Positions 2,256 through 63,800 of a stretch of DNA of 64,000 nucleotides are shown here, one piece after another. Positions within the stretch are counted from its first letter, which is position 1. Each line of letters starts with the position of its first letter. The notes beneath the pieces were generated by a model. It was not told the DNA's origin. It saw only the letters and a program-made list of their open reading frames with translations, and ran no database searches. Source of the DNA: Bugula neritina (taxonomy: Eukaryota; Animalia; Bryozoa); NCBI GenBank assembly GCA_964035545.1, contig OZ037771.1, positions 9,231,408 to 9,295,407 of the forward strand, in the 5' to 3' direction. A program made the translations under genes and the position numbers.

Positions 2256-2334
<79 letters not shown>

Positions 2335-3273: not shown

Positions 3274-3401
3274 ATTTTTTAAATAAAAAAAATATATGTA
3301 TCATTAACAATCTGAACACACTACATTATACTAGCTCTGTCACCCGTGATATCGAGCACTTTACTTTGCTGGAACTCCAACTAGATTGACAATCAGCATA
3401 C

Positions 3402-3440
<39 letters not shown>

Positions 3441-3443
<3 letters not shown>

Positions 3444-4047: not shown

Positions 4048-4358
4048 TGTTATGATTTTCAGATTTAGGGTTGATATGCAATCCAGAGAGTCTATTTACT
4101 TGCTAGAGAAACTTCACCAGGATAAGTCGAGTGAATACGAGTATATTTTTACACACAAAAACACATTACAAAAACTATACAAATACTTCTAATAATTCTA
4201 CACATCTATGTCATTCAGCACTCTAACTTTGACTAACTAACAGCGGGAAAACTAACTACTGCTACTAACTATAAGTGTCGCTAATTGGCTGTCCATTGTT
4301 CCGGGTCAATTACGTGACCCTGTGTATTTCGCTGCTGGTAGCTCCACGAGCCACTACA
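4048..4358 (-). mobile_element. Solo LTR related to the Gypsy element at 50088-57534
   Basis: TG...CA ends; colinear similarity to LTR 50088-50393 (tgttatgattt...gctggtagctccacgagccac). Flanks are ATAT/ATAC. Confidence 0.88.
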
Positions 4359-5998: not shown

Positions 5999-7483
5999 AT
6001 ACACTGCATATGCTGCAGAACATATTAATTCATATTAGCTAGTTTTTATATAGTTTTAAACCGTTGAAGTTGGCATATTATTCTGATAGGTTTTGTCTTA
6101 TTTATAAAATCTGGTTCAAAGAAAATGATACACTTCCAATTTCCTGGCTGCATGGAACAGAAAAGTTAATATAACACTGTTGATGCCTCTAAAGCCCATA
6201 AGCATAACATTTCAAGTTTAACAGAACCTCCACAGGTGTAACAGTGAGAGTGAAAGAAGACAAGCTGCAGTGTTGCTTCTCCTTGAAGTCAAATGTTAAG
6301 AGTAACACTTGATGTCATATTTCCGGCAGTTTCCAGTTATGCAGTACTAAACGGAGATGAACTTAGACTGTTGTGAAATCAACCGCTCAAAACTTGCTGA
6401 CATCACCAACTTCTTTTATCTGAAAATCAGTCAGCTTCAACTATTTCCACCTTCAAAAACTCATCACAAATGGGTAGATATTCTAAGTTTTAGGTTTTTC
6501 ATTGAAAATTGAAACACACCAAGTATTTCACAGAGCAATTTTTTTACATAATACAAATGCATATATTAGCTGAGTGACCTATGTTAAAGCTATGCTAATC
6601 ATCTTTTTTATCAAATACTGTTACTTGCTACTAGAGAGCAGGCTAGAGTTATGCATGTTTCTAAATATTATTGAATCATACTCTGATTGTTTCATTACCT
6701 AATAAAACCAAATTATGCACGTGCATCATAGACTCTTGGCCTGACTGGTTTAAAGACTTAGAATTTGAACTGATATAATACTAATACACGTAATGTAATC
6801 AACAGAAGTGTGACTAACAACCAAATAAAGCACAACATGCTGAGCCAGGAGTGTAGATATGTGAAAAAATGTCAATGGGGGTTTATATTATTCAACATGC
6901 TGTAAATTAAAATAAAACTGATTGTTGAACAATTAAAAAAAGCAACTAGGAGAACGTGAGCTACTTTATTTTTGTTATTTTTGCATTGCTGACACACATT
7001 GCTGACACACATCCTGTATGAGCTATCACTGGAATGTTGTTTAAATAAAACAGAGCAGCTGAAAACATGACTAAAATCTTAAATTGACCTCAAACACAAG
7101 CAAACACAGGATTACAATGATTTCCCTAGCATCTTGCAATATAGTGCTATATAAGCATAGGTAACTTAAATGCTGTAATAGAGATTCATCTAATGGTGCG
7201 ATGCACTATAATATGCAAGTACATTTAAAACCTTTTATTTAAAGGAAAATTTATTTGTTTGAACCTAACACAGACTTATATAATGCTGCATAACCAATAA
7301 TACTGAATAATTGTGTAAATTGTGCTAGCTCTTCAACTCGACTCAACAAGTTTTAATGTTGACATCAGTTTGCCCAATGTGATAGATTTATCAGCAGTAA
7401 TTCTTCAAGGCAATTTTTAATTGACATGCCATAAAAATATCCCAATACTTCTAATTCTTATTTACAGCCAGATTAACATGTTG

Positions 7484-7490
7484 TATAAAA
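7484..7490 (+). promoter_or_regulatory. Candidate TATA box of peroxidase paralog 1
   Basis: TATAAAA about 75 bp upstream of the ATG at 7560, similar spacing to paralog 2. Confidence 0.45.
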
Positions 7491-7559
7491 GGGAATAAAT
7501 TTATGACTTATGACACACTGCACACACTGCGCACAGGCAGAAAGTACTTGGCAAACACA

Positions 7560-24229
<16,670 letters not shown>

Positions 24230-30800: not shown

Positions 30801-33800
30801 CTGTGACAGTGTGGTATAGTAATACTGTGACAGTGTGGTATAGTAATACTGTGACAGTGTGATATAGTAGTACTGTGACAGTGTGGTATAGTAATACTGT
30901 GACAGTGTGGTATAGTAATACTGTGACAGTGTGGTATAGTAATACTGTAACAGTGTGGTATAGTAATACTGTGACAGTGTGGTATAGTAATACTGTGACA
31001 GTGTGGTATAGTAGTACTGTGACAGTGTGGTATAGTAATACTGTGACAGTGTGGTATAGTAATACTGTGACAGTGTGGTATAGTAATACTGTGACAGTGT
31101 GGTATAGTAATACTGTGACAGTGTGGTATAGCAATACTGTGACAGTGTGGTATAGTAATAATGTGACAGTGTATTATAGTAATACTGTGACAGTGTGATA
31201 TAGTAGTACTGTGACAGTGTGGTATAGTAATACTGTGACAGTGTGACATAGTAATACTGTGACAGTGTGGTATAGTAATACTGTGACAGTGTGATATAGT
31301 AGTACTATGACAGTGTGGTATAGTAATACTGTGACAGTGTGGTATAGTAGTACTGTGACAGTGTGGTATAGTAGTACTGTGACAGTGTGACATAGTAATA
31401 CTGTGACAGTGTGACATAGTAGTACTGTGACAGTGTGGTATAGTAATACTGTGACAGTGTGGTATAGTAATACTGTGACAGTGTAGTATAGTAATACTGT
31501 GACAGTGTGACATAGTAATACTGTGACAGTGTGGTATAGTAATACTGTAACAGTGTGGTATAGTAATACTGTGACAGTGTGGTATAGTAATACTGTGACA
31601 GTGTGATATAGTAGTACTGTGACAGTGTGGTATAGTAATACTGTGACAGTGTGGTATAGTAATACTGTGACAGTGTGGTATAGTAATACTGTGACAGTGT
31701 AGTATAGTAATACTGTGACAGTGTGGTATAGTAATACTGTGACAGTGTGGTATAGTAATACTGTGACAGTGTGGTATAGTAATACTGTGACAGTGTGGTA
31801 TAGTAATACTGTGACAGTGTGGTATAGTAATACTGTGACAGTGTGATATAGTAGTACTGTGACAGTGTGGTATAGTAGTACTGTGACAGTGTGGTATAGT
31901 AGTACTGTGACAGTGTGGTATAGTAGTACTGTGACAGTGTGGTATAGTAGTACTGTGACAGTGTGACATAGTAATACTGTGACAGTGTGACATAGTAGTA
32001 CTGTGACAGTGTGGTATAGTAATACTGTGACAGTGTGGTATAGTAATACTGTGACAGTGTAGTATAGTAATACTGTGACAGTGTGACATAGTAATACTGT
32101 GACAGTGTGGTATAGTAATACTGTAACAGTGTGGTATAGTAATACTGTGACAGTGTGGTATAGTAATACTGTGACAGTGTGATATAGTAGTACTGTGACA
32201 GTGTGGTATAGTAATACTGTGACAGTGTGGTATAGTAATACTGTGACAGTGTAGTATAGTAATACTGTGACAGTGTGGTATAGTAATACTGTGACAGTGT
32301 GGTATAGTAATACTGTGACAGTGTGGTATAGTAATACTGTGACAGTGTGGTATAGTAATACTGTGACAGTGTGGTATAGTAATAATGTGACAGTGTGGTA
32401 TAGTAATACTGTGACAGTGTGGTATAGTAGTACTATGACAGTGTGGTATAGTAATACTGTGACAGTGTGGTATAGTAGTACTGTGACAGTGTGGTATAGT
32501 AATACTGTGACAGTGTGGTATAGTAATAATGTGACAGTGTGGTATAGTGTGGTATTAGGGAGCAGCCGTGGTCTAGGGGTTAGAGTGTTAGCCTAGTATG
32601 CACGAAGCCATGGGTTCGAGCCCATACAAATGTCATTGGTGATGTTAGAAAGAGCAACCAGTCATAATTGCTCCTGTGCCCCACCTGAATAAGTCCTTAG
32701 CCTGATTTAACAAAAAAACCCTCTCATCAGAGGTTTTCTCACAGGGATGGCGACCATAAACTTGCGTGAGTAGTCTGGTATAGTAGTACTGTGACAGACT
32801 GTAAATAGTTTATAGACATACCCAATAGAAGGTTCTTCTACAACTATATTGTCTTTCATCGCTTGGTCAATCTTCTGTCGTATCTCAATTTGCTTCCTCC
32901 TCTGGAAGTCCTCCATTTCCCTATTCTGTGCGTCTGCATCTTGTTGAGTTCTCACCAACCACCTGGCAGTGCAGAACATGACTCACCAGTTTCACACAAA
33001 AGACACAAGCAGTGAAGTGGACATGTTAAGTTAAAGCAGGAACTTCGTATCGTTACCATCTTTTGTTTATCAACACTCTTGACATTATGTCACTTGATGT
33101 AAAAAATATTTTTGAAAATATTTTAGTGCACAGACCTAGTCACTTCTCTGTTGCTGAGAGTAAACAACTTGGTACTCATGCACCTCAACTGAAACAGCTC
33201 TTAGAAGGTGGAGCACTAATAACTACTACAGAGTAAAACTCAATACTAAGAACAACTGTGATAGCGACAGAAATTGCTCAACTTTTAGACAACTTGAGGC
33301 TACCAACACTGCTAGACATCTTTGTGCACTACAATGCACTGTGAATAGTAAACAAACATAATAAAATTTACCTGTTGATTAGTTCATTATACTGAGCTTC
33401 GACTGTCTTGTATTTTTCTTGTAAACACACAAACTCTAACTGCAATGCTTGCTGCTCATCTTTTAGCATCTGAAAATGTATACTAGAATGTATATTTATT
33501 TTACTCTAAAAGCAATAGGCTAATTACATGCATACATCACACTAGTCATTTTACTAAACTAACAAACAATGACTATGTTTACAACCTTTAACCCAACTGA
33601 ATAGCAGTGATAATCTGCTGATTTAAGTTCTGCACAAGAATTAGAAACTTTTCAGCCTCATCACATCACAACTACAGAAATGTTGCTTGTACAAGATAAG
33701 GACTCAAGTTAGGCTTTAACTGCCAAAGTTATAGGATATAAAGTATGTATTTAAATTAAGTTCTTTAATGCATTTGCTGTTCTCTAGCAAGCTAAACTTC

Positions 33801-42167: not shown

Positions 42168-43358
42168 ATGAAATGCTATATCGTCAGCATGAGATATTTT
42201 ATAGTGTATATTGTCACCACATTGTTCTGTGTGACTCAGGGGGTATATAACCCATACAGATATCAACCTACACACAGGAGAAGGTCAGCATTTTGTTATA
42301 TATTTCGGTATTAATGTAAGAGATAAACTCAGTCGTATACTATCACTTCACACACATCTACCATTATTTATTTTGTACACAAAATATCATTACAGTGATT
42401 CAAATATTTTATGTTACATGGTAAAGTATAACATTAGATACATGAGAACATATATATTTATAATGTGCGCATGTGTACATACGTTTACGTAAGAGACTGG
42501 TGTGATATATTTTGTTGTTCAATAAACAAATAATTTTGAGATAGTAAATTGTTATGTACTTATAGAGTTTATGTTATGTACACTATAGTGTAAGTCATGC
42601 ATGCAGTTGAGTTTGCACGCATAGGATTGCTACAAGCATCAATTATGTACACCAATTGAGTGTTCTATATGTTAAGAAATTTTAGCCTCTGTTTGATGGT
42701 GCACTGTATAACGTGTGTTAGATGGTACACTGTATAGCATGTGTTAGATGGCGCACTGTATAGCATGTGTTAGATGGTACACTGTATAGCATGTGTTAGA
42801 TGGTGTACTGTATAGCATGTGTTAGATGGTGTACTGTATAGCATGTCTTGAATGGTATGCTGTATAGCATGTGTTGGATTGTGTACTGTAGCATGCGTCA
42901 CGTATTATAAATTCAAGTATGCAGTGCATTATGTATGCGTGCTGCACATGTGGAGTATGTCATAATAGAGTATTTATAGAAATTAAAAGAAGTGACATTT
43001 CAGTTCTAAATGCTATCACTCTTGCTTTAACTGCTACATATTCATAATTTCAGAACATACTGGAATCCAGAGAGGTATGACTGGCGAAGGTAAGTGGGCT
43101 AATTATTACTTTTAACAATAAAAGTAGGTGTTGCATACACATGTAACCAGTAGTGTACAGATGCGTAAGAGTACAGGGTGTATATAGTATATACTGTATA
43201 ATTAGCATTGAGATGCATACCATGTGGTTGTTTCTAAAACTGCATTGCATGGCTGAAACCAGAGTGAGCAAGTCATTTAAGCATATTTTGCCGAGGATAA
43301 AGGTTAAATTAAAAATAACATGTTGACTAGTAATATTTTTATGCACATTGTAAAATTT

Positions 43359-43429
<71 letters not shown>

Positions 43430-46400
43430 TGTATATTCTGTATACCCTTGCAGTTTAGCAAATAAACACGGGAGAGGTCGACAACACACAGTGGTGCCTT
43501 TCTACAGAGCAGCTACTACCAACCAGTTCCCATCAGCTATAACAACTTCAGGTAACTTCAAACTGATAAAACCTTGGCTTCTAAGCTTGCTTTACAACTT
43601 TCATATATCTGCAGCAGTCGTGCTGGTTCCACATATAGGCGTGGATGATTGGCACTATACCAATAGTCTTATGAAACTGTTCACATCTGTATCTTTGTAT
43701 CTTCGGAAACTGCATACTTTTTGCGGGTTAGGAATAGCTCTTAATTATATGCGTGCTTTTCAAGTTATAAATTATTCATAATTTGATGAGTGTGGCTTGC
43801 TATATAAAATAACGCCTAGTTTTGTATTAAAAGTAATTATTTTTATAAAAATTGTCATGTAGGTAATGTAGTTTTAACTTGGTTTGGTTTTGGTTTTCAC
43901 ATTTTGTAAACTTGTATAGTTTATATTCAACAAAACTTCCATTTGTGACCATTAACATTAGCAGGCTTGAGAAGGATGATCAATCTTGTTGAATGTAGTC
44001 AGTTGCTAGGTGAACTTTTGAGTTTATCATAAATTTTCTAGCAATCTGTACTTTTAACAGGATAAAGTTTTGTGTTCATCATATGAGTTGTTAAATTAAA
44101 TTTTAGTTAAAATTTGATTAATTATAAATAAAATTCTATTCTTTTTGGACAGCACCAACACCTGCATGTTGGATTAAACCAGCTCCTAGATGCGACCCGA
44201 ACTCACCATACAGAACTATTGATGGTTCTTGTAACAACTTGAATAATCCTACTTGGGGTCAGTCAGTGAGGCCAATTGGACGTCGTTTGCCTCCCAAATA
44301 CAATCCAGGTATTCTATACCAGTAAATGCACAAAGCTGTGTGCACACATAATATTGAAGTGAAACCACAGTTTCTAGCAGCTGCAACAGTTGAAGCATCA
44401 CCAACTGTTAACTTGTGTTTAGGGAGTTTAACAGATATCAGAACCATTGGAGTGACAGGCAGACCTCTGCCAAGTGCCAGGGAGGTGTCTACTGGTGTAC
44501 TAGAACTTGCAACTAAGAGAGATTTGTCAACTACTTTGACAGGGATGCATATGACTTGGGGTCAATTCATTGATCATGACCTCACCCATGTACCACTAAC
44601 ACCACCAGTAAGTCACTCTTTAACAGTTGTAGTAAGACATCAACATACAGCTTCTCTGTTGATGATGGTGAATAAGAGCAACATTCATGCATAGTTATAA
44701 GATTAATTTTTCTATCTATACACACAAGAAGATGGTAGAGTCTTACTAATGTATAATCACTGATTTCTAACCTAAACTGCTACCAGATCTCATAGCAAGA
44801 TAAATGTGACTATAACAGCACAAACTTGGAGTACCAAATATGCAACATAAAACAAAATGTAATGTGATTGAAGTGTATACAAAACTATATTATGGTTATG
44901 CCAAGAATATCAGATCAATTGATAACACTTAGAACTTGGCAACAGTTCAATACTAGTAAATCGCAAGACATGTGAACTATTAATTTCTACAGTTATTTTT
45001 AGATAAAGTTCTGTTTGAGAACAAAGTTTTGGGAAAAAGCAAAGTTGTCAAGGAATTTAAGGACAATTAATTAGTATAAAAGCAGATTAGGGCAACATTA
45101 TTTTGTTCTCAACTGAATATTTTAGATGAAATGCTGTAATCAACCAGCTGGAAATCAACACGAAGATTGTATCCCCATAGGTGTGCCTCCAACTGATCAT
45201 TTCTATGGGCCAAGGGGAACAACGTGCTTAGAGCTGAGGCGATCTATGGCCATCAAACCGGGACAGTGTGGTATGTCCCATGATGCTATTTTATTAATGC
45301 TCATTCTAGCGAAATCTATGCTTCATCTAGTTAAATATTTCTTACTATTTTCCATAATACAAGTTCTGTAAACTATTTATTTATTCTTTATGTGTATTTT
45401 ATACAGGAAATACCTTTCGAGAGCAGCTCAATAACCTAACTTCCTACATAGATGCTGGTTTAGTTTACGGTAGCACAGATGAGAGAGCCAAGCAGCTAAG
45501 GTCGTTCTCTAGAGGTCAAATGGCAGATTCAGATGCACGGTATCACTTACCCATTGAGAAACCAGGAACTAAATGTGACATACCACCAATAAATCACCCA
45601 GACAAGAGATGCTTTGCTGCAGGTGAACATTTTTAAGTTCTGTAACTTGATTGGTAACTTTGGCAATGTGTTTATACCTATGATGTTTATACTGTTTAGA
45701 GCATAGCTGACTGAGTTGAACAAATGGGCACTATATAAAACATGTTTAAGGTTTTATGATAACACTTTAATTCAATTGTAAACTAAATCTTTATCCAATA
45801 TACTTTGCTACTAATATAAACAATATTTTAAAGCGTTTAATTTCTAGAACTCTCTAAAACATTATGAAATTGTAGTTCTAAAGTTCTGATCAATTAGCTA
45901 GCATGTATCACATACATATGCTTGTTACTTCATCAATTATTCTATTTTATTCTTCTTAGGAGACACTAAAGCTCAATTAATGATGACAACCTGTTACAAA
46001 TGTGTAGACATAATAAAATGCTACTCTGATGGATTTCTTGTCTAACCTGTTGTTTCTGGCAAGGTGATCGAAGATCGAATGAATGGGGAGGACTCACTGC
46101 AGTGCATGTTATCTTCATCAGAGAACACAATAGAATAGCAGAAGTATTTTACAGAGACTTGAAGTCTTCCAACCCAGGAACATCAGAAAGAGACTTGGAC
46201 GAGAAGATTTATCAGGAAGTCAGAAGAATTATTGCAGCTCAAATTCAGGTTACCAGATTGTCAAATCTAAAGTGTGGAAGTCTTAGCTGCTAGGCCAGTT
46301 AATGAGTTAGTGGGCAAAAATGTAAATTAAAAATAGTTAATGTAGATTAGCTGTGACTATGTTGCTTTTCATAATTGAGATAATGAACAAACTTGATAAT

Positions 46401-49400
46401 TTTCTGTAAATTACAAAATGGTTATGCAATTAAATATCAACTTATTGCTTATTTACTTATTTCCATACAATATAAGAATAATATAGGAAATTTGTTTGTT
46501 ATAGCTTCTAACTTTCAATAAACAAGCAAGGCAATTGTGTTTTGTATAGCTAATTTTTTTGCAAATAATTTATTTTTACTAGTTGAAAAAGCCACTGCAA
46601 AACAAAAATAATGTGGAAAGAGAACTTAATTTTATAAAATTTGCATACTTCAGGTTATAAATTATGGTGAGTACTTACCTAATGTACTTGGCGACTACCA
46701 AATGAGGAAATATGGTTTGTACCTGGAGCATGGCTTTCCTCGGGGAGAGAAAAATATATACGATGCAAACTTAGATGCCACAGCTTCAAATGTGTTTGGT
46801 ACAGCAGCGTTTCGATTTGGTCACAGTGAGGTTGCATTTGGCACTCAGCCAAAAAACAGGTAACATTTTTGCACTCCAATTGGTGTATAGCAACAGCTTA
46901 TCTCTCAATTCACATCAAAGCAAAATTCTCAACAAGGAAAACAGACTTTCAGACAGTTTGACTCACTTATACATAAAGTAAATTATAATGTTGAGTGACA
47001 GAGATGCCAGCTCCTTCTGGATTAGGTTTTAAAACTTCGGTAAGGTTTGTTTTCGACACGTTATGATTGGTAAATTAAAGTAATACTGACCATATTTCTG
47101 TAGTCTGTAGTTTCCTTTCTTATAATTAATAAGATAGCATTGGAAGACCACCTAATATTTATAATTGAAGATGTCATAACAAACCATTATGGAAACTTCT
47201 AGTTACAGCATGTATTTCAATTAAACAAATATAAGTTTTGGCACAAGATTACTGCGAATAATGATTTTAAAAAAGCTTTACTATAGGTTTGATTTTTCTT
47301 TTAGTCACTATCACAATACTTCGAGCTTCGTACCATTTCTGGAGCTTTTAAATCAACCAACAACGTACAGACAGATACAGAATGACAATGCAATCCGAGG
47401 AATGATTGTTGAGCCATGTCTAAAGACATCTAAGTTTTCAGCTGGTAAATTTTTTTAAATTTGTAAGCTTGTACTGATTAACTAGTTACAGATAGGCAAA
47501 AAGAAATAAAGTCAACTAGATTTTTATATCTTGTTATGCCCTAAATGATGTATATAATAGAAAAAGTATAACAATGAATTTAATGGATCTGAACTTGTGA
47601 CTTGTAGTTAGCTAAAATGTAATAAAATACTTCAAGTATATACCTTTCAAATAGTTTGACTGCTATAACAATTAATTAACATTTAGATTAAAGTGTGTAC
47701 GAATTTATATGAAGTGCCAATTATTATAGGAAATTTATTGGTAAAAAAACTAATCTCCACAGTTATATACAGTTTCACTCAAATCGAAAACAAACTTGAA
47801 GTAGGTCAGTGTAAAAAATATTGATGGAAATTATGTATATGACAAAATGCTGACAAAACTAATTAATTAGATTGCACAGTTGCATATACTTCAATGTGAA
47901 ATATAATTTAGATCAACTTTAGGTATGTTATAGTTGTGACACATGTATAAATTATGGATATACAAAAATATAAGAGAAAATTGAATTATTTTGTTGCTAT
48001 TGTTACAAGGGAATGTTTCCTTGCAGTAAAAGAAAGTATTTCAGGAAGTAACAATCACATCATCATAATTAGAATTTCCTTTGTAACTGTTTCAAAGAAT
48101 GCATAAATCCTACTATTTATGATGAATAATTATTGCATAATGTGACTAAACTGACCAAAAATTAATATACACATCGGTGTCTGGGTTAGACATAATATAA
48201 TATATTTAATAGAGAACTAATTACAATACTTTAATTTTTCTTGCTATATTAGTACGTGTTGTGTTTAATTTGATGCAGAGGTAAAGAATCATCTGTTTGA
48301 GAGAACTTTTAATGGAAGTGGATTAGACTTGCCTGCTATAAGTACCCAGAGAAGCAGAGAGCATGGTCAGTAAATATTCTACATAATTACTTATATATTC
48401 TTATCTCAAAGAGTCTTAGATAACTGTAATATGTTAAGTCATACATCTTAAAATAATGAATATAAAACATGCTAATGAAAACTACCTTGCAAACTTGCTG
48501 ATTATTTTAAATGCAAAAAAAAGCCTGCATTTATGCCGTAAACAGTAAAATATTTCTTATAGTGGTGAAATGTTTTAAAAATTGTATTTAAAAAGTTGTT
48601 TAAATGTTGTGAAGGTTTACCTACTTACAACTCATGGAGGAAGTTCTGTGGACTAAATGCAGTTACTTTTGACTACATGCCAGACCACACTGATCAACAG
48701 AGACGGAGATTTGCTCAAACCTACGATCACCCAGACGATATTGACCTTTTCCCAGGAGCCATCACTGAAAGGTGGGATTTTTCAATTTGCACACAATTGA
48801 TTCACTGTAAAACTTACATGAAGTTGATGTCTGAGTGTGTTTATAATAGCACTAACATTCTACTGTAACAGATTGGTGTCGCCAGATGCTCATGTAGGAC
48901 CGACATTTGCATGTCTCATTGGACAGGAGTTTCAGAGGCTGAAGAAAGGAGACAGATTCTGGTTTGAGAATCAAGGAACTTACCCTAACCACTTTACCAC
49001 CAATCAAATTATACAGCTCTCTAAGGTCTGTTTGGTTATACACTACCATGTGTTAAATTATTATCTTCATCATCAAATATTAGTATAGATATTAAATAAT
49101 GAAACATCAGCATATAATATGAGTTTTAGACATTTATAAAACATGATGCTATTGGCTCTTCTATAAAAAATCATTTATTTAAAATAATATTATAACAATG
49201 AAATTAATTAATTGATAGTGGAAATAAATAAAGATTTTAAACTGTTTAACGAATTTGTTGAAAACTCTTGTTTATTGCTGCATGTTTTACACTATGCAAT
49301 AGTAAACTAGCAATGTAATGTATACCAACTATGAATACTTGCTGATGTAAAATAAGAACTGCATGTAGCTCAGTATTGATTTATTATCGATTATATGAAA

Positions 49401-49570
49401 TACTCTACTTGTTGCAGATAAAGCTATCTAAACTAGTGTGTGACAACACCAACACTGCTGTGGTACCAGAAAGCGTTTTTAAACTAAAGTCAAAGTTCGT
49501 TAGATGTGAAGATCTCCCATCGCTGGATCTTCAACACTGGCTAAAGTCATATCCGTCATACGGATATTAG
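42168..49570 (+). CDS. Secreted animal heme peroxidase, paralog 2, 13 exons, about 665 aa
   Basis: Exons 42168-42283, 43454-43551, 44153-44308, 44423-44607, 45126-45270, 45407-45622, 46064-46248, 46654-46859, 47305-47444, 48279-48365, 48615-48771, 48872-49025, 49418-49570 join in phase (1998 nt). Signal peptide (M)RYFIVYIVTTLFCVTQG (alternative start 42189); same intron positions as paralog 1. Confidence 0.93.
42695..42895. repeat. 26-bp minisatellite (gtgttagatggtacactgtatagcat)
   Basis: About 7 tandem copies in intron 1 of paralog 2. Confidence 0.9.
43361..43426. repeat. (TA)n microsatellite
   Basis: Directly visible, just upstream of the exon 2 acceptor. Confidence 0.95.
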
Positions 49571-50660
49571 TTTCACATAATGAAGTGCAATACACTGTCT
49601 ATAAACTGGATACTTATTCTGCTTGTACCTGATCATTTCTTAACTTACAAGTTACAAGTATTCAGCAAATTCCCTAACTAGTTTGATGTACTGGAAGTCC
49701 CTTAGTTGATTGATGATCCTTTAACCGCACTTCGGTTTAACAAAATTTATGACCCTGCAAACTCCTTCTCACTGCCATGTGACTAAGTAAGCGTGCATCT
49801 TTTATTCTCACTTCTGGCTGTTGCACTGTTGACTAATTGTTTTGTTTTGTGCTTACAATAGCAAAATAATGTTCACCTATATAATCTGTTATACTTGTTG
49901 GTTATATTTTTAATATTTGGGAGACTGACTGATTGATTTCAATAAGAATGACTAAAATATAGTTTCTTTTGAGTCACTATATCTTTAACTAATTAAATGC
50001 AAGTCACAAAATTTGTGAGATGACTGAAGTATAAAAAGATTGTAAGAAAGTTTCAAATAAAGGCTTTTTGATAACATAGTGCAATATTGTTATGATTTCC
50101 AGAATTAGGGTCGATGTGCAACCAAGAGAGTCTATTTATTACTAGAGAAACTTCACCGTGATAAGTCGAGTAGATATCGTTATATTTTAATACAAGAATA
50201 CATAATAAAAACTAACATACAACAGTTAATAATACGCACGTCTATTTAATTTACAGCACTATCCTCAACTGAGCTAGTAGCGCGAAGCTGCTACTATTAC
50301 TCATAAACAGCCTAGCTAATTGGCTAGTACATTGCTCCGGGTCAATACGCAACCCTGCGTATTGTGTTGCTGGTAGCTCCACGAGCCACCACACTGCCCC
50401 CTCCAGCAGAAAGCCCTCTTTCTGATAAAAAAATACTTCACATAAAAACATATACTTTGTTGTGGAGAGAGAGAACAGTACAAAAGTATATACAAAAAAA
50501 ACAACCGATAAAATATACAGGTATAGATATATAAAACGTGCACAATATGTAATGTGTAAGAGAAAGTCCTATTTACATGTAGAGTACGTGCCACCATAAC
50601 GGTAGGGAATGCCACAGAGAGGTAGGGGAAGAGTAGTATGGAGTTGGAGATAGACTCATG

Positions 50661-51734
50661 TTAACTGCGGGCCGCCCGCTTCATGCGTTTAATAGACTCC
50701 TGTAGATATTTGAGTTCACTGGATGCAGCCTGCACCCGCGGGGCCAGTCTGTACACTTCTTGCTCTAGGTCGTGTGCCTTAGCTTCTACTTCGCGTAGGT
50801 TGCGGGCCAGGGGGGACGAACGAGAGGAAGTCTGCTGTCTGTGCCTTTTCCGTTCGGAGGATGGAAGTGGAGGAGGGAGTGTATACGCCTTCGTGTCTAC
50901 CCTCTGTAGTACGACACGGGGGAATGTATGCGGGTGGCGTAGAGGACTGTGAGGTGGAGAGTTAGTTGATTGTATAGGTTTATCTGCGGCTCCAGAGATG
51001 ATGGGTCGCGGGGAGGGAAAGCCTTGCTCCAGGCGAGACAGCCGAGCTGGGTCGGTGATGAGGGGTTTGATGGCGTTGAGAAATGCGGGATATGATGATT
51101 CGTCTACTTCATAGACGTGTCCTTGAAAACACTGCATAGTGCGTTGGTGACGCAGTAGGTAATCACGATTGTAACTATATGCTCCGCAGGGGCAGAACGT
51201 GGTGATGTAATGCTGCGGCAAGTGTACTTTCAGCCTGCGGTGGGTTGTAAATCGCTGCTGGCAGAGGTTGCATTCGCGGTTACCATCACCTCCTTTATGA
51301 GTCTTAATCTCTCTCTCTGTGGCAGGGGTAATCCAGTTAGAGGTTGCTTCCAACTGGGGTGGCAGTTGCCTGGTTGTAGAAGTCGTTGGGGCCGGCTCTG
51401 GGTCCCACGCCATCTCTAGAGAAGGCATGCCCGGAGAGACGGGCGCGAGTGTGTCTACAAAAGTAGAATTATTGTTAGATCGCGGTGGATCTTTACAACA
51501 TAATTCTAGTGACTGTCGACTGTTACTAGCCTGAGAGTCACAGCTTTTGGAATGCACTCGAGGAACCGATGAATCATGTGTGGACTGACCAAGAACAGTG
51601 TCTAGCTCCAGGTCTAACAGACCGTCGGCCATTACAGTGTCCTCATCGTCATTCACATGAAACGTGGTTCCCAGTAATTCTGATTCAATCTGCTGAATTA
51701 GTTCAGAATTTACTGGCATCGAGCTCGTTTCCAT
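50661..51734 (-). CDS. Accessory 3' ORF of element B: C2H2-type zinc finger region plus C-terminal coiled coil
   Basis: 357 aa intact; CNLCQQRFTTHRRLKVHLPQH followed by CPC...H...C; heptad-rich C-terminus; homologous remnants in element C. Confidence 0.8.
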   Translation of the reverse strand: METSSMPVNSELIQQIESELLGTTFHVNDDEDTVMADGLLDLELDTVLGQSTHDSSVPRVHSKSCDSQASNSRQSLELCCKDPPRSNNNSTFVDTLAPVSPGMPSLEMAWDPEPAPTTSTTRQLPPQLEATSNWITPATEREIKTHKGGDGNRECNLCQQRFTTHRRLKVHLPQHYITTFCPCGAYSYNRDYLLRHQRTMQCFQGHVYEVDESSYPAFLNAIKPLITDPARLSRLEQGFPSPRPIISGAADKPIQSTNSPPHSPLRHPHTFPRVVLQRVDTKAYTLPPPLPSSERKRHRQQTSSRSSPLARNLREVEAKAHDLEQEVYRLAPRVQAASSELKYLQESIKRMKRAARS

Positions 51735-51751
51735 GAATAGGAATACAAGAC

Positions 51752-54700
51752 TTATACTGGCTTACCTGTGAACTCGGTATTAATGTCCATACTCAACGTT
51801 CTTGGTAAGGTTGGAGCTGGTTGTGAGATACGTCTGCCTTTGGCGATGTCAGCGTAAGAAAAGGCTGAGCATCGTTTCTGAGGCACGAGGTCGGAACTAT
51901 TTGCTTTACGCGCATTAATTCCTCCCACTATTCCGCCCTCGCAAAAGTTGATATTTGCGTGGGGTTCACAACTCCAACATTTTATCGTACGGTTTTCCCC
52001 TAGACTTTCATGCGTGCCGCTTCTAATGCAGTCACATATGAAGTCTTCCAAATATGGTGGGGGTTTCCTCGTACGCTGTCCCCGTTCTAGGGGGGGTGAC
52101 ACGCTCGCCGGTTCGTTAGTAGGGGCCTCTAATGGCGTCTCTACTTCACCGTGAGCGGTCACCTCTTCTTGTTCTCCGGATGGAGCCCCTCCCTCCGTGG
52201 GGGTTTGCACTTCCGGAACCGGCTCGGTTTCTGGAAGTGATGGAATTAGACTTGGCGGCGGCGGACACGCTTCCGTTGGCAAAAGCTGCCGCTCCTCTCT
52301 CACCAAGTTTTCTTCCCGCGGTATGACCACTTCGTATTCAGGTCCATGCCGCCGTCGCCCACGCGTTGTTGTCTGCCTCCTGGGCTCCAACAACGGGGGG
52401 GCTTCTCCCGCTGCGTCGGGGCTAGCCCAATACGGTTTCAAGCGAGACTCATTCTGGATAAACACCTGTCCTAAGCGCTCAATCTTGTACGTATGATTGG
52501 GCATAGCCTCGACGATCACGTAGGGTCCTACGAACTTAGGCTTCAGTTTATCAGCCTGTCCGCGACGCCTACGGTAATTGACCATCCACACCTTATCTCC
52601 CGTTTGGTAGAGAGGTGGTTCATCGGAATCTTCGTGCCGCACCTTCCACTGCTGTTCGCGCAGTATATCGTGCGCGGCCTTCATCCGTTCCACTAGTTCA
52701 CTGGCATACTCGTGAACCGAGTTGTCTTGCTCTGGAACGTGGTAGGTGATATGGTCAGGGACACGAGTCTCTCTCTTGAGCATCAAGAGGTTTGGGGTCT
52801 CACCAGTACTGGTGTGTGGGGTGCTACGGTATGCCCGCATGACTTGCGGCAACACCGTATCCCATTCCTCTTGGCCTCGTCCAAGGAGGAGACTCCGGAG
52901 CGCATCACCTAGCATCCGGTTGTTGCGCTCCACCACTCCATTACCTTGAGGGTGGTAGGGGGTGGTCCGACTCTGATTTACTCCCCAGAGGTGGCAAAGG
53001 TCGCTCATCAGTTGAGACTGGAATTGAGCGCCTTGATCAGAGTGTATCTGTTCTGGAAGACCAAAATAACAGAATACATGTTGGTCTAGTGCCCTGGCCA
53101 CTGTTGGGGCTGACGCATCTGGGATAGCCAGAGCATCCGCCCACCTAGTAAAGTGGTCGGTTAGTACTAAGATCCAGTTATTGCCTCTGGGGGTCAGGGG
53201 CATGGGTCCGACCAGGTCTACAGCGACTACTTGCCAGGGCCTACCAGCATATAGCCTCCGCCGTCCTGCTTCACCAGGGGGCGGCTATGCTTACTGGCCT
53301 GGCAGATCTCACACTGTTTGACTCTGAGTCGGACGTCACGCTCCATTTGTGGCCAATACCACCGGAGTCGTAATTTGGATATCACTCTCTTGACCCCTGC
53401 GTGGGCCTGTTTGTGAGTATCCCAAATCAACTCACGGCGGATGGCCGTGGGGCAGACTACCCTCTTCCTCTCCGGGTGTCTGCCGCTGGCGGCTAGAGAG
53501 ATGGTTAGTAACCCATCCTGCCCGATCCGCAGCGAGTCCCAACGCTGACAGTATAGCCGGAACTCGGCACATCCCTGTCTTATGCGTTCCTCGCTGGGTC
53601 GTCGCCCTTCCCTTTTGGCCCGATATATGTCTGCCACGACTCCAGGCAGCTCTTCTTGGAGCTTCTTCAGCTCTCGAACATTACCGGCCAGTACAGGGTT
53701 GGCGCGGAGGTTTTGTACACCCTCCGGGGACTCATCAACTCCTTGCCTGAGTTGACCCTGGTCCCAGTCAAACGGTGCTCCGTGGTGAGCCAGCGTCTCC
53801 AACTCACATCGCGGGGGACCTCCATCCCTCCTCTCGATGTTGAGACACTGTTTGCAACCTCCCTCAGGTCGGCGACTCAAACCATCCGCATTGCTGTGTC
53901 TCTTGCCCGGTCGATGTTCGATCCGGTATGAGAACTCAGCTAGTATTTCGAGCCACCGGGCGACCTGACTAGAGGGCTCTGCTCTCTTGCACAACCAGAT
54001 CAGCGAGGCATGATCCGTACGCAGCCGGAACTTCCTGCCATATAGGTATGGTCTGAAGTGCTTCACTGACTTGATTACTGCCAGCAGCTCCTTGCGGGTA
54101 GTGCAGTAATTTCGTTCAGCGGGTGAGAGAGACTTGCTGTAGTAGGCTACTACTACCTCTCGGCCTTCCTGCACTTGTGACAGCACAGCGCCAACATTTT
54201 GGTCACTGGCGTCTGTGTCGAGGATGTACTCCAGAGTGGGGTCTGGGTAGGCCAAGATGGGCGCCGTTAGTAGGCAGCCCTTGAGGCGGTCGAACGCTCC
54301 TTGTTCGACTGGGGTCCACTGCCACGTCACTCCCTTTGCGGTGAGCCGATTTAACGGCTGTGCTATGCCCGCAAAGTCTGGTATGTATTGCCTGTAATAC
54401 CCTACCAGCCCCAAGAAAGCCCGGAGTCCGGTCAAGTCTTGGGGGGTGACCCAGTCTTCTATTGCCCGCACCTTCTCGGGATCCGTTGCCACGCCGTTTC
54501 GACCGACAACGTGCCCCAGGTACTTAACCTCCGGCTGCAATAGAGCGCACTTGGAAGGTTTGAGCTTAAGACCGGCACCTCGGAGTCTCTCAAAGACCTC
54601 CTGCAAACGACTGACATGCGTCTCGAAGTCTGGGGAGATCACGATGACATCATCGAGGTAGACCAGCAGTGTCTTCCAATGGAGCCCGCTAAGGACTTGC

Positions 54701-56380
54701 TCCATCAGCCTCTGGAAGGTGGCCGCGGCGGAGGTTAACCCGAAGGGTAGCACCTTCCACTTCCACAACCCGTCCCGTGTGATAAACGCCGTTTTCTCCT
54801 GGGCGTCGGGACTCAGTGGGACTTGCCAATAGCCGCTTAGCAAGTCTAACGTACTGAAGTACTTGCTGCCGGCTAGGGCGTCCAGTGACTCGTCAATACG
54901 AGGTAGAGGGTAGGCGTCCTGTATGGTTACGTTGTTGAGTTTACGGTAATCCACACAGAACCGCCAACTGCCGTCTTTCTTCCGGACCAGTACGACCGGT
55001 GAGCTCCACGCACTATGGGCGGGCTCTATGAGGCCGCGGTCCAGAAGATCCCGTACTTGTCGGCTAACCTCCTTCTCTTTCTCCGGCCCCAGCCTGCGTG
55101 TGGGCTGCCGGACAGGGACTGTCCCTGCAGTCAGCGGTATTTCGTGCCTGACAACTCCAGTCAGCCCCACGTCATGATCTCCGCTACTGAACACATCACC
55201 GTAGTCGCGTAGCAACTTCGCCATAGCTTGGCGTTCCTTGTTGCTCGCGCAGCCGCCACAGGCTGTTTCATATAACTCCCGGAGATGTGCTGGGACTGCC
55301 CCTCGTCCCTGAATAGGGTGTCGAGGGGGTGTCTCCGTCGCGTCACCCAGCGACGGGCCCACGTCCTCTTCCTGGATGGAGTGGAACCGGCCCAGCATTG
55401 ACCCAGCTGGGAGCTCAATGGGCTCGGTAAAGGGGTTGACACACTGCACTAAGACCTCCCCTCGCTCAGTTAGTCGGTTTAAACTACTGGCGAGTTGGAT
55501 CCTTTCGTGCGCGCCTTCAACGACCCCGAGCCTGGCTATCCGGTTGCTGTTCACTCGGCAGTGGATAGTAGCTCTGGAGCGTCCGGGCACGGTGCAGTTT
55601 CGAACTACCTGGACACCGCCCACCAGAGGACGCCCAAACTTATCCACACAGGCGAGTTCTCGCCCGCCCATCAGCACCACCGACTTGCTAAAGTCTATTC
55701 GGCACTGGTGTTGCTTCAAGAAGGGCATGCCGAGGATGGCATCTTCCTCCAGTTGGCTTATGACAAAGGTCTCCTGTACAGCCTGGTCTCGGACACGCCC
55801 GGGGAGCTCGATAATACCGTAAAAGGGAATACATGACCCGTCTGCCAGGGTGCCATGTTCCCCCGTATATGGTCGTACTCTATCCCTGTCCCGGCGGGGC
55901 AGTGCTTCAAAGACTCTACGACTGAGAAGGTTGGTAGTACAACCGGAGTCGAGCAGGAAAGTGACGGCGTTGCCGGCCACCTTTCCGGGTAGGAAATAGC
56001 TCTCTCCATGTGGTTGTACTTTCACCCCCCCCCCCCGCATGTGCTGTCCTAGATGGGTAGGACGGCGGGGGTTTCACCCGTGGTTTGCGGGGTTTCCGGC
56101 GGCGAGGTTGATGCCGGCTGGGTTTGGGGCTCTCCACTGGGCCTTCTGGCTCCATTTCAGTGGCGGGCTCCTCTTCCCGAGGTAACCGGTGGAACCGGTT
56201 GGCGAGTGGCAGGGAGAAGGTACTCGGCCGTTGTGCGGGCCTACTAGTCCTGCGTGGTACCTGCCACTCGGGGGGAGTGTTCCGTCGTGTCCGTACGGAC
56301 AGACGGCGGCGTGTCCCACCATACTCCTTTAGTTGCGGCCCGCGGGGAGGGAGAGCGTCCGCGGGCCGTGACAGTTTAAC
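51752..56380 (-). CDS. pol: Pol polyprotein of element B, with frameshifts near 56030 and 53279
   Basis: LLDSG, YLDD, TDAS, HHCC, DDE and KFVGPY across ORFs 53227-56040 and 51752-53203; both breaks fall in homopolymer runs. Confidence 0.92.
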
Positions 56381-57195
56381 GCCCCCTGGTATTGGGGTCG
56401 TCCTTGCTGTCCATGGTCTCGACCAGCACTACTCCAGTCTGGCCCCACAGGTGTTGGGGGCAACCGCAGGGCCTGACTGGGGACAGCGCCGGCCAGAATT
56501 GTTGCCAGCTGTCCCAGCATCTCTACCATGCGGTCCACTTCGGCTTCCAGCGGGGGGGCTTCGGGGCTTGTTGTAGCCCTGGCAGCACTGACTCCAACTA
56601 CTGGTGGGTTCCGTTGTGCTCGATGCATTTGGGTAGCCAACAGGTAAGCTTCTCCAGCTTTCAGGGCATCTTCTATCCTGGTTATCCCTTTTGCTCGGAG
56701 CTGATGGTGTAGGCCCGGGTCGTTGAGTGACTGGACAAAGCCGTCGTATGTGTGACGCTCTTGGTGTTGTGCGGGCAGATCGCCGTACGCAATCTGTGCT
56801 AGCTTCTTCACCGTCGCGGCATGTTCTTGCAGCGAGGTTCGCGGGGCGCGGCACAGCCTCTGTAGCTTAGTCCTAGCGTCTACTGCGGAGATACCAAAAC
56901 GGGCCCGCAGCGCAGCCAGTATTCCGTTTACGTCCGTTCCCACTCCGTACGGCTTGGCTTGCTCCGTCAACGCCCTCCGCAATTGGATGAGGGCCACTCT
57001 ATGCGGCCATTGAGCAATCTCCATTACTTCTCTAAATTCTTGTATAAACTGTTCGACATCTTCTGACCCAGTAAAGGTGGGAGCTTTCAAGCAATATCTA
57101 TACGCTTCTTCTCCCTCACGATTCACAGGATTACCATCATTTCTACGCTCACCTTCTACTGGGGGTGGTTGCATTCTAGCATTTTCAGTCTCCAT
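56329..57195 (-). CDS. gag: Gag of element B (no zinc knuckle)
   Basis: 288 aa after the PBS; aligns with gag A (P-F-G--DVEQFI-EF, ALRARFG). Confidence 0.9.
   Translation of the reverse strand: METENARMQPPPVEGERRNDGNPVNREGEEAYRYCLKAPTFTGSEDVEQFIQEFREVMEIAQWPHRVALIQLRRALTEQAKPYGVGTDVNGILAALRARFGISAVDARTKLQRLCRAPRTSLQEHAATVKKLAQIAYGDLPAQHQERHTYDGFVQSLNDPGLHHQLRAKGITRIEDALKAGEAYLLATQMHRAQRNPPVVGVSAARATTSPEAPPLEAEVDRMVEMLGQLATILAGAVPSQALRLPPTPVGPDWSSAGRDHGQQGRPQYQGALNCHGPRTLSLPAGRN
56336..56380 (-). promoter_or_regulatory. Programmed -1 frameshift signal of element B
   Basis: G TTA AAC in gag phase, 5-nt spacer, 10-bp stem cggcccgcgg/ccgcgggccg; the -1 frame is open and homologous to the pol A N-terminus. 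Confidence 0.78.
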
Positions 57196-57591
57196 CTTTG
57201 ATGTGCACTATCCCACTGCTGCCACCACTGTTATGATTTCCAGAATTAGGGTCGATGTGCAACCAAGAGAGTCTATTTATTACTAGAAAAACTTCACCGT
57301 GATAAGTCGAGTAGATATCGTTATATTTTAATACAAGAATACATAATAAAAACTAACATACAACAGTTAATAATACGCACGTCTATTTAATTTACAGCAC
57401 TATCCTCAACTGAGCTAGTAGCACGAAGCTGCTACTATTACTCATAAACAGCCTAGCTAATTGGCTAGTACATTGTTCCGGGTCAATACGCAACCTTGCG
57501 TATTGTGTTGCTGGTAGCTCCACGAGCCACCACAATATTATATATATAGTTTGAAAAGACTAGAATTTGTTTGCCTATAATGAAGCTTGAG

Positions 57592-59274: not shown

Positions 59275-60066
59275 CATGGCAAATCTTTACTACAACTTTC
59301 AAAAATAGCATAAATTAAGTAGTATTACCGTGTTTATTTGCATCCAATTCACTAGTCTTACATTTATAGCAACTGTAACGTATTTTGTGTAAAATGGTTA
59401 TTGCAAGCATTATTCAATTCATATTGTTGTATTTTTATACTGTGGGTTAGTGTGCAATCAAGTGACTTTCTGTCCAGTATGCTAGATCAACTTCGCCAGT
59501 GAGGTTCGAGTTATAATAATATATTTTATACAATGATACAATAAACCAGAAACTACATCTATCAGAATACATCAATAGTTATTCTATCCGTCTCTACAGT
59601 TTGCCAGACTACTCCTAACTAACCATCACGCGGGAAGTTACAGCTACTAATAATAGTTAATGATTCTTATTGGTAGGTTGCTGTCTCGGGTCATCTTGTT
59701 AATATACTTAGTGACCCCGTGCTGCACTTAGAAGGAGATTAACATTTCCCCCCTCCGTTATTACGATGGTAGCTCCACGAGCCACCACAATATTCACATT
59801 GTAATCACAGCGAAGGTTAAACTTTATAGCTTTGTATTTACGCGCATGATTGAGTTTTAATTTTTTTAATTTTACGTGCATTAAAAATGTGTTTAAAAAC
59901 TTTACCAATAAACAAAACTAAAAAAATACACACATAGAATAAAAAATATAATAAAATTACAAAAGTGGCAAAATTTTTCCTTTATAACTTATATAAACTT
60001 GCGGTACAATCGCGGCATAACGATTTTTCATGCTTTAAAGTCAACACTCCTAAATATACCACACTG
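59136..60066. mobile_element. Non-autonomous hAT-like DNA transposon
   Basis: CAG...CTG ends, ~32-bp imperfect TIR (cagagtggtatatactaggagtgttgacttta), perfect 8-bp TSD GAAGAAAC; contains (TA)n and a nested solo LTR. Confidence 0.85.
59425..59789 (-). mobile_element. Solo LTR of the element B lineage, nested in the hAT element
   Basis: TG...CA, TSD ATAT, terminal tggtagctccacgagccaccaca identical to LTR B. Confidence 0.85.
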
Positions 60067-60876: not shown

Positions 60877-63800
60877 TGTTATGTTTTCTGTTATTGTCGG
60901 TGTATAATCAGATTAACACATGACCAGTAGTTATGCAATCGACCTCACAGATGGGTTGCAGGAGAATAAGATAATATATTTTTACGATAGATACAACAAT
61001 AAAACTTCACATTCACTTCAGACAGTTTTACAACTCAGTGTCAAGTGTTCACTGTTTTTCTGCCCAGTAACAACTGATGCGGGAGAAGACTGTTCCTCGT
61101 GATCTAATCAAGATCTTCATTCTGATTGGAGCTCAGACTGATCATATCACTAGCCACGAGGTCTCCCGCATGGTACGAGGAATATAGAAACGCCGCGATC
61201 ACCTTTTATCACAATGAAAGACGGAAGCGGCGAGCTCCCTCCTTCATCCATATATATATATATACGAATCTGTGAGCCATCACACGGTCCCCCAACAGAA
61301 AGCCCACTTTCTGATAACAATCATACAAAAAATGGCGAACATTACATGGGTACACACGTCTAGATAACAGTGATATTAAAGGAGAAAAAGGAACAAAGTA
61401 TTAGGTATATATATATAATGAGAGAAGTGCCACACAGATACATCAGTAAGTTACACAAGAGGGTAGGAGCTGTCATTTACATGATAACAATGCCGTGCAT
61501 CGAGTATGCCCAGGAAGGACGTGACTCAGAGATATTTCCTCCTCAAGGGGGGAACTATTGTTGCTCAGCCTGAGAACGATATTTGGCTTGTCGAGTACAG
61601 AGTCTCCTTTTTATCCGACCCACCGAATCTTTTAACTGGTACAGGCCGGTGGTTGTAGTTAACAGGCTGGGGGCCAGTTGGGTGAAATCCGCCTGTAACC
61701 GCAGGAGCCGCTCTTCTACAGTGGCCAAGTGGGTTGGTCTCTCAGGTTTTGGGGCAGAAGCCCCTGTGGGTGACTCTGCCTCCTCCTTTATAACGTTCTG
61801 AGTTGGTTCGTCCACCTTGGACACAGCCTCGGGCTAATCGGCGACTATGGGAGAGCGGTGTCGGTGGGAGAGCGGTGTCGGGCATACTTCAGCACAGTCT
61901 GAAATCCTTGGGTTAGGACGGCTAGCATTAAAGCCTTTCTAACTAGAGGGCGTATAACTGTCAGGAACTCTGGATAAGTATCAGCATCCACTGTGTGGTG
62001 GACTCCGGGGTGACATCCGCTAGCCATGTGTGCGGTAACGGGGTATGGATAGGATAGCAGGTAATGGGCATTCACGTTCATCTTTAGTGCACGAATAGAC
62101 GAACAATCCTCCTGGCACACTAGACATCTGGTACTTCCGCGCGGCCCCCACACGGCTTCTATCTTTCTTTCCGTAGCCGGCAACACCCACCGCCAACGAC
62201 GGCAGAGTGGCGCCGGTAGCCCTCCGTCTTCCTCCATGAGCGTGGAAGGATGTGGGTGAGGTGCGTGGTCTTGTGACCCTTTGGTAGCAGGTCGAGTGTT
62301 ACCTGAAAGAGTTCAACAGTGTTAGTTACATACACTGAAGTGCCGCCAGCGTTAGACAGCCTGACAGCCCCCCTCTCAGTTAGACACTCGCGATATCTAT
62401 GCCAGTGAAAAATTGGCCGAAAACACGAACTGCAACCGAGAATCACTAAGATCTCCTAGTCAGTCCGTGTTCTCACCACTTACTTTCACTGACGGTATAT
62501 CCATCCTAGTTAACTAAGTTGAGTTAGAGCTGACTGATGCAATTTAGTTTCCATACCAGAAGAATATAGTTAACTCACCCCTCGATCCGGTATAGCCAGA
62601 CATACTGAATTTTGGAATGATTACTATGAGTGACTACTAGCACGTCTGCTCTTAACTGCATCAGCATAAGAAAAGACCGGGCAATGTGGTTGTGGCGTGT
62701 GGTTGGGGCACTTCACAACTGGCGGATTAATTTCGCTCGTGGTTCCGCACATGTAAAAGTCAGTTTTTACGTGGAGCCCACAACTCCCACAATTAACTGA
62801 TGGTTCTTCCGTATGGCACCCGCTGGACTTACATACTTGCCGCTTTGAACACAGTCACATATGGAGTCTTGTAAGTACGCTGGAGGTTGTCTGGTACGCT
62901 GTCCTCGTTCCAGAGGAGGCGGTGCACTCACCGATGGACTATCAAGTTCCACTGGTGGGACTTCTGGCTCATTAGTGACTATTTCTTCTCTGATTTCACC
63001 GGACGCAGCCCCTCTCTCCGTGGGGGTTTCCACTTCTGGGCCCAGCTCAGGCTCCGGAAGTGACGGTGTCAGACCTGGCGCTGGAGGCGGCGGACCCACT
63101 TCTGCTGGGGGAAGCGGTCATTCGTTTCTTGCCAGGTCCTTTGCCCCCGGCACGACCACCTCATATTTGGGTCCACGCCGCTGTCGCCCGCGCGTTGTTG
63201 TGTGCCTCTGGGGCTCCAACAATGGGGGGCTTCTCCCACCGCGTCGGGGCTGGCCCAATACGGCTTCAAGCTAGCCTCATTCTGGACAAACACCTGTCCT
63301 GAGCGCTCAATCTTGTAGGTATGGTTGGGCCTCGACCACTACGTAGGGTCCCACGAACTTGGGCTGTCACTTAGCCGCCTGTCCGCGACGCATACGATGA
63401 TTGACCATCCACACCCAGTCTCCTACCTGGTAGAGGGGTGGTTCTTCTGAGTCTTCACGCCGCACCTGCCACTGCTTCTCTCGCAGCATTTCGTGTGCGG
63501 CCTTCATCCATTCCACCAGTTGGCTGGCGTACTCGTGGACCAAGTTGTCCTGCTCAGGAACATGGTGGGTAAGGTAATCGGGCACCCAAGTCTCTCGACC
63601 GAGCATTAGGAAGTTGGGAGTCTCACCAGTACTGGTGTGTGAGTATTACGATAGGTACACATGACTTGCGGCAGTATCGTATCCCTTTCCTCCTGACTCC
63701 GGCGGAGGAGCAGACTCCGGAGGGCATCACCCAGCATCCGGTTGTTGCGCTCCACCACTCCGTTACCCTGTGGATGGTAAGGGGTGGTCCTGGTTTGATT

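Follow-up and report, generated by a model that had tools for sequence, protein, structure and literature searches.

Here, we describe ORF3, an open reading frame (ORF) of 357 codons in element B, a Ty3/Gypsy long terminal repeat (LTR) retrotransposon that lies in a 64,000-nucleotide (nt) stretch of Bugula neritina DNA (contig OZ037771.1 of assembly GCA_964035545.1, positions 9,231,408 to 9,295,407 of the forward strand; the window, to which all coordinates below refer). Compared across elements and protein collections, ORF3 is by sequence an accessory gene that a Gypsy lineage of marine invertebrates has conserved; purifying selection acts on it, and its product appears not to be an envelope (env) protein. 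We tentatively read that product as a dimeric DNA-binding regulator acting in trans on the element, at a probability of about 0.45. Most LTR retrotransposons are regarded as limited to gag, pol and sometimes env, and accessory regulators are known from very few animal elements. In the usual picture, hosts deploy zinc fingers against transposons, which ORF3 would reverse. The gene is a concrete candidate for how an element might control or protect its own expression, and it is testable by virtue of a compact domain of 120 residues, a high-confidence model and predicted splice junctions.

ORF3 is read from the minus strand, beginning 17 nt past the stop of the integrase frame (51752) and stopping about 250 nt short of the polypurine tract and 3' LTR; it has no internal stop, and the other five frames hold 13-24 stops each. 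Its parts are as follows.

50661..51734, minus strand: ORF3, long form, 357 amino acids (aa; protein P0001), an open frame with ATG at 51734 and stop at 50661
51585..51734, minus strand: acidic N-terminal segment, aa 1-50, net charge -7 to -13 in 11/11 full-length close homologs
51006..51374, minus strand: conserved folded domain, aa 121-243, with a helix, a C2H2 finger, a CxC-H-C finger, a V-D strand and two helices
50838..50852, minus strand: basic cluster RKRHR, aa 295-299, an RKRRW-type cluster in close homologs
50667..50813, minus strand: C-terminal long helix, aa 308-356, predicted coiled coil, a helix in the model and heptads in homologs

An earlier note, drawn from the letters of the window alone, had described an intact 357-aa sense ORF between integrase and the polypurine tract, carrying a C-x2-C-x12-H-x3-H finger, a second Cys/His cluster and a terminal coiled coil, with no signal peptide or transmembrane segment; each of these features was recovered. 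Finger 1 is C155-x2-C158-x12-H171-x3-H175 with core residues F162 and L168, the second cluster is C181-x-C183-x12-H196-x5-C202, and a single model helix spans aa 308-356. The Pfam C2H2 score of P0001 is 14.4, below the cut-off of 25.2. No membrane segment was found in a 19-residue hydropathy scan (maximum 0.58 in P0001, at most 1.18 across 11 full-length rows), which is also the sole basis for judging a signal peptide absent, and no fusion-glycoprotein ectodomain matched ORF3 in Pfam or was listed in the fold searches. A conserved, non-env accessory gene in the env position, as the note had proposed, is what element B carries. Across full-length close rows, identity to B is 65% in aa 1-50 and 60% in the finger domain, and 30-35% in the spacers. 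The first 50 residues, mostly of low model confidence except for a helix at 10-21, form a candidate activation domain, and RKRHR, whose counterpart was found by a loose rule in 22/37 distant homologs, is a candidate nuclear localisation signal.

Selection was assessed from the best-supported 40 of 89 variable places in contigs of one run (X1, its kind not given). Of these 40 listed variants, 30 leave the amino acid unchanged, where the same letter changes at random places would do so in 32% (p 3e-8), giving a ratio of amino-acid-changing to silent variation (pN/pS) of about 0.16 among them, far from the value near 1 that the earlier note had named as telling against its claim; 28 lie at third codon positions. 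The opposite-strand mirror frame likewise gives 28/40, as expected, but is riddled with stops. At a 3% share, no insertion or deletion is listed within ORF3, and a few single contigs have gaps. By region, the silent share of listed variants is 8/12 in the finger domain, 10/11 in the coil and 1/4 in codons 1-93.

A single-sequence search with the ORF3 protein yielded 41 close homologs (44-75% BLAST identity), and a profile search yielded 268 clusters (50% identity) at E<=0.001 and 110 at 1e-10. Among 79 aligned rows, reaching down to about 20-30% identity, the first seven zinc ligands are kept in 97-100% (the four of finger 1 in 99-100%) and C202 in 76%, and W134, T139, R167, S187, R190, V210 and D211 are present in 66-94%. 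In the helix of finger 1, basic residues are retained (R/K 85%, R 71%, R/K 75%), and S-R-D is retained in finger 2. Coil-like heptads, by our own simple heptad rule, end 31/37 representative matches that have the motif and a long enough tail, compared with 3.5 expected from shuffles. Pfam assigned no family above cut-off to P0001, and among 150 homologs gave 4 weak zf-C2H2-type matches, 1 protease, 1 SH3 and 1 coil family. Scans based on ORF3 gave 125 pattern matches in metagenome contigs and 11 in viral contigs, none of them confirmed as a locus, and an integrase scan of the viral contigs gave zero matches. No description of the protein was found in the literature searched, which does not cover subscription journals, Repbase Reports, GyDB, Dfam or bioRxiv supplements, and a search on bryozoan gypsy LTR retrotransposons returned no paper. 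A match to an already described family ORF, which by the earlier note would have told against its claim, was not found within this scope; the family appears undescribed, and Repbase may list an ORF of this kind. Two homologs, P0185 and P0194, join a Gypsy protease to the finger domain in one frame of 1145-1208 aa without reverse transcriptase or integrase between, and possibly represent a non-autonomous element that retained ORF3.

To avoid circularity, further loci were retrieved by integrase alone, yielding 8, of which 3 have about 900 nt or more downstream. The domain is present in two of those three: in L002 (57% integrase identity) directly after integrase (E 2e-11), and in L001 (59%) at the contig start (E 2e-16), where the ORF belongs after pol because the opening 54 nt of that contig are repeated right behind the pol stop. 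The third, L006, is decayed, with a weak CxxC-x12-H stretch after integrase and no profile score; L003, L004, L005, L007 and L008 end too soon after integrase to show the domain. The L001 contig carries an ORF3-bearing 3' end at 1-2033, and in its next copy (7336-8111) ORF3 is deleted between short ACAG repeats, an arrangement of tandem elements or an assembly of two variants. Within the window, the other two Gypsy elements carry these relatives of the gene.

61555..62603, minus strand: decayed ORF3 of element C, finger domain without CxC, coil in another frame
21593..22345, plus strand: 3' ORF of element A with a C-terminal helix-like end, 53% over 79 aa to P0076 (E 6e-20)

Element C, truncated by the window end, does hold the diverged homolog that the earlier note had seen there (tblastn 32% over 130 aa, E 1.5e-14; hhalign probability 98.9), but the copy has decayed: finger 2 has lost its CxC to an in-frame gap of 9-10 codons, and the finger domain is split from the coil by a stop and a change of frame. 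The comparison of B with C alone is accordingly weaker evidence of function than that note had made it. Element A (15769-23107, plus strand; LTRs with 1 difference in 541; ATAT flanks) has homology that stops at the start of the finger domain, the domain itself being missing (no match to the finger-domain profile). Its 250-codon 3' frame stays open despite this loss, a donor-like site lies at 21774 just past its integrase stop, and its LTR contains nested inverted repeats (16036-16100 and 22834-22898).

The 123-residue domain (aa 121-243) is modelled at a predicted local distance difference test (pLDDT) score of 96.7 in all five models and a predicted template modelling (pTM) score of 0.87. 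Among solved structures, the closest are tandem C2H2 pairs bound to DNA (Kaiso, ZNF524, ZBTB20, CTCF and SALL4), over 50-57 residues at a root mean square deviation (rmsd) of 2.4-3.9 Å and Z 3.2-3.6; in the model, the fingers look to be of the classical kind. The two adjacent fingers, predicted to be of beta-beta-alpha type, superpose on those of Kaiso/ZBTB33, ZBTB20, CTCF and SALL4 at rmsd 2.4-2.8 Å over 50-57 residues. Unlike in these tandem factors, the linker has five residues and is not TGEKP, the second finger is of CxC type, and extra helices and a strand join the fingers in one 120-residue domain; Z stays below 4, with no significant sequence match (the best E in a PDB sequence search was 0.063, for SALL4). 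Foldseek returned nothing significant for the domain (E>=0.15), and no fold matched at E<=0.001 in PDB or viral models, a failure that does not make the fold new; for the helices and strand flanking the fingers, the structure searches found no match. In the full-length model, the fingers and one helix are confident and the remainder is predicted disordered, save a short N-terminal helix and the final helix; a wide fold search with it found generic helices only. Homodimer prediction for aa 121-357 scored 0.18 against a mark of 0.32, which is no answer and was not used.

From the sequences of B and C we infer two forms of the product, a short one of about 270 aa made from two exons and the unspliced long form. 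The first exon and intron are predicted as follows.

51766..51790, minus strand: predicted mini-exon, ATG plus 25 coding nt in the integrase tail, phase-1 donor G|GTAAG, equal ATG-to-donor distance in C
51455..51765, minus strand: predicted intron, 311 nt, with CTAAC branch point and phase-1 acceptor, overlapping long-form codons 1-94

On the element strand, B has its ATG at 51790, donor at 51765 and acceptor at 51455, and C has its ATG at 62603, 25 nt, a donor at 62578 and an acceptor at 62303; all four sites are phase 1. By our acceptor rule, that of C is the sole one in 3131 nt and that of B one of 8. The CTAAC pattern also occurs in nearby host introns, the stretch over the branch point is nearly invariant in close homologs, and codons 93-94 fit YAG|G in 37/37 of them, with residue 93 varying among L, S, V and I. 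A methionine stands eight codons ahead of the donor position in P0045, P0091, P0141, P0142 and P0178, and a valine in a sixth. Read in the integrase frame, the B donor falls four codons ahead of the stop of that frame, and its phase matches that of the acceptor; because the mini-exon lies in the integrase frame, a spliced integrase fusion is also possible. There is a phase-1 donor-like site early in the gag of B (57152). Metatranscriptome contigs (run X2) gave one 276-nt contig on ORF3 with 39 differences, which shows neither transcription nor splicing, and a joint from 51481 to 51788 (X7), similar in size to the predicted intron with ends 22-27 nt off, was not counted.

Of the three functions that the earlier note had offered (regulator, anti-silencing factor or integration-targeting factor), the evidence leans to a nucleic-acid-binding regulator. 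A dimeric DNA-binding trans-regulator is favoured because a small transcription factor would have the same parts: an acidic N-terminus, two classical fingers, a basic cluster and a terminal coil. Made in two predicted forms from subgenomic RNA, the product would likely enter the nucleus, bind DNA as a dimer and, acting in trans, promote the transcription of the element or protect it; the long form with its acidic N-terminus would be the likely activator, and the spliced short form of about 270 aa, which lacks that segment, possibly a modulator. Several points weigh against this reading. The structural matches, at Z <4 and Foldseek E>0.1, show no more than a common finger arrangement. The finger helices are similar across elements whose LTRs are seemingly unrelated, which suits backbone or RNA binding as much as recognition of a site; no shared 8-mer or motif stood out among four LTRs. 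Splicing is weakened since 18/350 residue pairs attain 90% compatibility, B has 8 acceptor-like sites, and 3 of the 6 homologs showing the donor region have Asp and not Gly there, giving no GT. The long form is less secure because so few listed variants are silent in its N-terminal 93 codons (1/4, Fisher p 0.04 against the rest). Lastly, the young element A lacks the finger domain and one L001 copy the entire ORF, so ORF3 is dispensable in cis, a loss that in turn fits a trans-acting product. A wider version, in which an old Gypsy lineage, found in bryozoans and probably in further marine invertebrates, would encode its own undescribed double-finger and coiled-coil transcription factor, with a long activating form and a short form spliced separately or onto integrase, as a 'complex' element like foamy viruses, and with its exon taken by hosts several times, is doubtful as a whole.

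Element-encoded trans-acting regulators of their own family do exist, the Tas protein of foamy viruses being one. VANC of VANDAL elements is another, according to the available text of its report (PMC6719617). Both offer ORF3 a functional analogy alone, and no homology is claimed.

The same fingers, Arg-rich cluster, coil and conserved basic finger helix would also suit a factor like CERV or Rev that binds the unspliced genomic RNA and exports it from the nucleus, since genomic RNA would keep the predicted intron. CERV, from the Cer1 element of C. elegans, is described in the accessible part of its paper as a spliced, nuclear LTR-retrotransposon accessory product with a Cys-rich finger, a basic signal and a leucine zipper that acts in RNA export, and also as sharing exons with gag, having a G-protein-like domain and possibly a C4 finger, and being nematode-specific (PMC10309623). 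By comparison, ORF3 stands after integrase, has two classical fingers, and leaves no room in its model for a G domain; likeness to CERV was neither seen nor compared directly in sequence or fold. With the two fingers superposing on DNA-bound pairs, and export needing no acidic N-terminus, we regard this explanation as unlikely.

Integration targeting is another use for a nucleic-acid-binding module, if splicing fused the integrase tail in frame to fingers and coil, in the manner of the chromodomain on chromovirus integrase. The B donor is in the integrase frame and phase-compatible with the acceptor, homolog P0172 carries the domain in one frame with an integrase-tail motif, P0185 and P0194 have the Gypsy protease joined to it, and insertions in the window have ATAT-like target sites in common. 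On the DNA of B, however, a stop and frame change intervene and the domain is not encoded in frame at the integrase C-terminus; the tail motif occurs in just 1 stored homolog; the conserved ATG 25 nt ahead of the donor suggests a separate small exon; and the finger-less element A also sits at ATAT, with a stop preceding its donor. No protein of 1044-2980 aa with the domain was found among 2565 candidates, which counts weakly. We therefore hold a targeting module to be quite unlikely.

There is a slim chance that ORF3 is a counter-defence protein which contacts host silencing proteins or small-RNA machinery and is not a transcription factor. Quickly evolving disordered regions flanking a fixed core, dispensability in cis, and the existence of transposon-encoded anti-silencing factors such as VANC (in the text available, PMC6719617) agree with this, but no direct sign of it was seen and the fingers resemble classical nucleic-acid binders. 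A passenger without a role for the element, whether an env remnant or the recently captured host zinc-finger exon that the earlier note had considered, is largely refuted and most improbable, for although annotated bryozoan proteins have the same domain, pN/pS is low, the domain holds the identical position after integrase in elements of 57-59% integrase identity, host-annotated proteins are scattered among element-borne domains in the tree, and there is no hydrophobic segment.

Whatever the role of ORF3, extra non-env ORFs are a known kind of retrotransposon gene. The ORF3s of the bdelloid rotifer elements Juno and Vesta, as far as the available text goes, include a DEDDy exonuclease, a GDSL esterase, and coiled-coil and transmembrane ORFs, and ORF3s of this type are said there to be typically expressed from spliced messages (PMC5408684). 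They resemble the bryozoan ORF3 as extra, non-env, family-specific genes after pol; they differ in being enzymes or short coil or transmembrane proteins, with no C2H2 fingers in the accessible description (PMC5408684). The env genes of errantiviruses and Tor elements also follow pol, and in the parts of the reports available are expressed by splicing, or from an internal promoter in Tor3b/4b (PMC13524379; PMC4402516). Compared with those env proteins as described there, ORF3 lacks a signal or membrane segment by hydropathy and shows no F- or gB-type ectodomain among its Pfam and listed fold matches; bryozoan errantiviruses, per the same partial text, have gag-env-pol order and a gB-type env (PMC13524379).

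Among 30 clusters looked up, all named organisms are bryozoan, and several members are annotated as host proteins, in Watersipora subatra (XP_067940963/4, XP_067944745) and B. neritina (KAF6040922, KAF6040923, KAF6037488). XP_067944745, KAF6040922 and KAF6040923 have a common N-terminus that by eye is unlike any element ORF3, and two of the three carry doubled domains. On a quick, unrooted tree of 128 columns with many forks open (6 picked rows without the motif were left out), 3 changes account for the seven host-annotated domains (by starred branches, at least 2; 89/500 shuffles as low), and KAF6037488 falls inside a 96%-supported clade with B. The pattern would fit repeated take-over of the domain by hosts, and points to a possible transposon origin for a set of unnamed bryozoan zinc-finger genes; some host-annotated copies may be annotated elements. 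P0223 and P0226 share an N-terminus opening with a VKTEP motif and differ in their finger and coil halves, which is what a host exon spliced to one or another terminal exon of element origin would look like.

The window is AT-rich animal DNA in which the three Gypsy elements (A, B and C) stand out as GC-rich. Element B occupies 50088-57534 on the minus strand, with 306-base-pair (bp) TG...CA LTRs that have 4 differences and ATAT on both flanks. Besides ORF3, it comprises the following.

50088..50393, minus strand: 3' LTR, TG...CA, 306 bp, 4 differences to the 5' LTR
50394..50405, minus strand: polypurine tract, a purine run adjoining the 3' LTR
51752..53284, minus strand: integrase core, SH3-like C-terminal domain and tail (Pfam rve E 3.5e-16)
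53227..56073, minus strand: pol, with protease, reverse transcriptase, RNase H plus integrase zinc domain by Pfam matches
56329..57195, minus strand: gag-like ORF, by position after the primer site, no Pfam match above cut-off
57211..57228, minus strand: primer binding site, the same site in A, L001 and L002
57229..57534, minus strand: 5' LTR, paired with the 3' LTR

Pfam matches in pol (RVT_1 1.8e-36, RT_RNaseH 6e-35, Integrase_H2C2 1e-14) follow the Ty3/Gypsy order of protease, reverse transcriptase, RNase H, then integrase, and the integrase frame differs from that of the reverse transcriptase and RNase H ORF near 53230-53284. With its LTRs, target-site duplication, pol order, primer binding site and polypurine tract, element B is a Ty3/Gypsy LTR retrotransposon. 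The primer binding site, which we take to match the 3' end of tRNA-Leu, was not found in 7 supplement files of an eLife paper.

ATAT flanks both A (15769) and B (50088), a solo LTR at 4048-4358 that is 76% like the LTR of B has ATAT/ATAC at its sides, and an LTR end fragment at 59767-59789 abuts ATAT-like sequence; the Gypsy lineage of A and B likely has an ATAT target preference. A multi-exon host gene at 43000-49570 (plus strand), presumably a heme peroxidase from its translated motifs, has similar exons at 9214-10727 and 23303-23755, which suggest a tandem cluster hit by element insertions. Long inverted repeats at 1937-3452 enclose a 171-aa ORF (2474-2989) that we take to be the GIY-YIG endonuclease of a Penelope-type element. 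Minisatellite arrays with units of about 21, 24 and 32 nt, at 24885-32596 and 13038-13901, yield long spurious ORFs, and minus-strand exons between the arrays presumably belong, from their translation, to a WD40-like gene.

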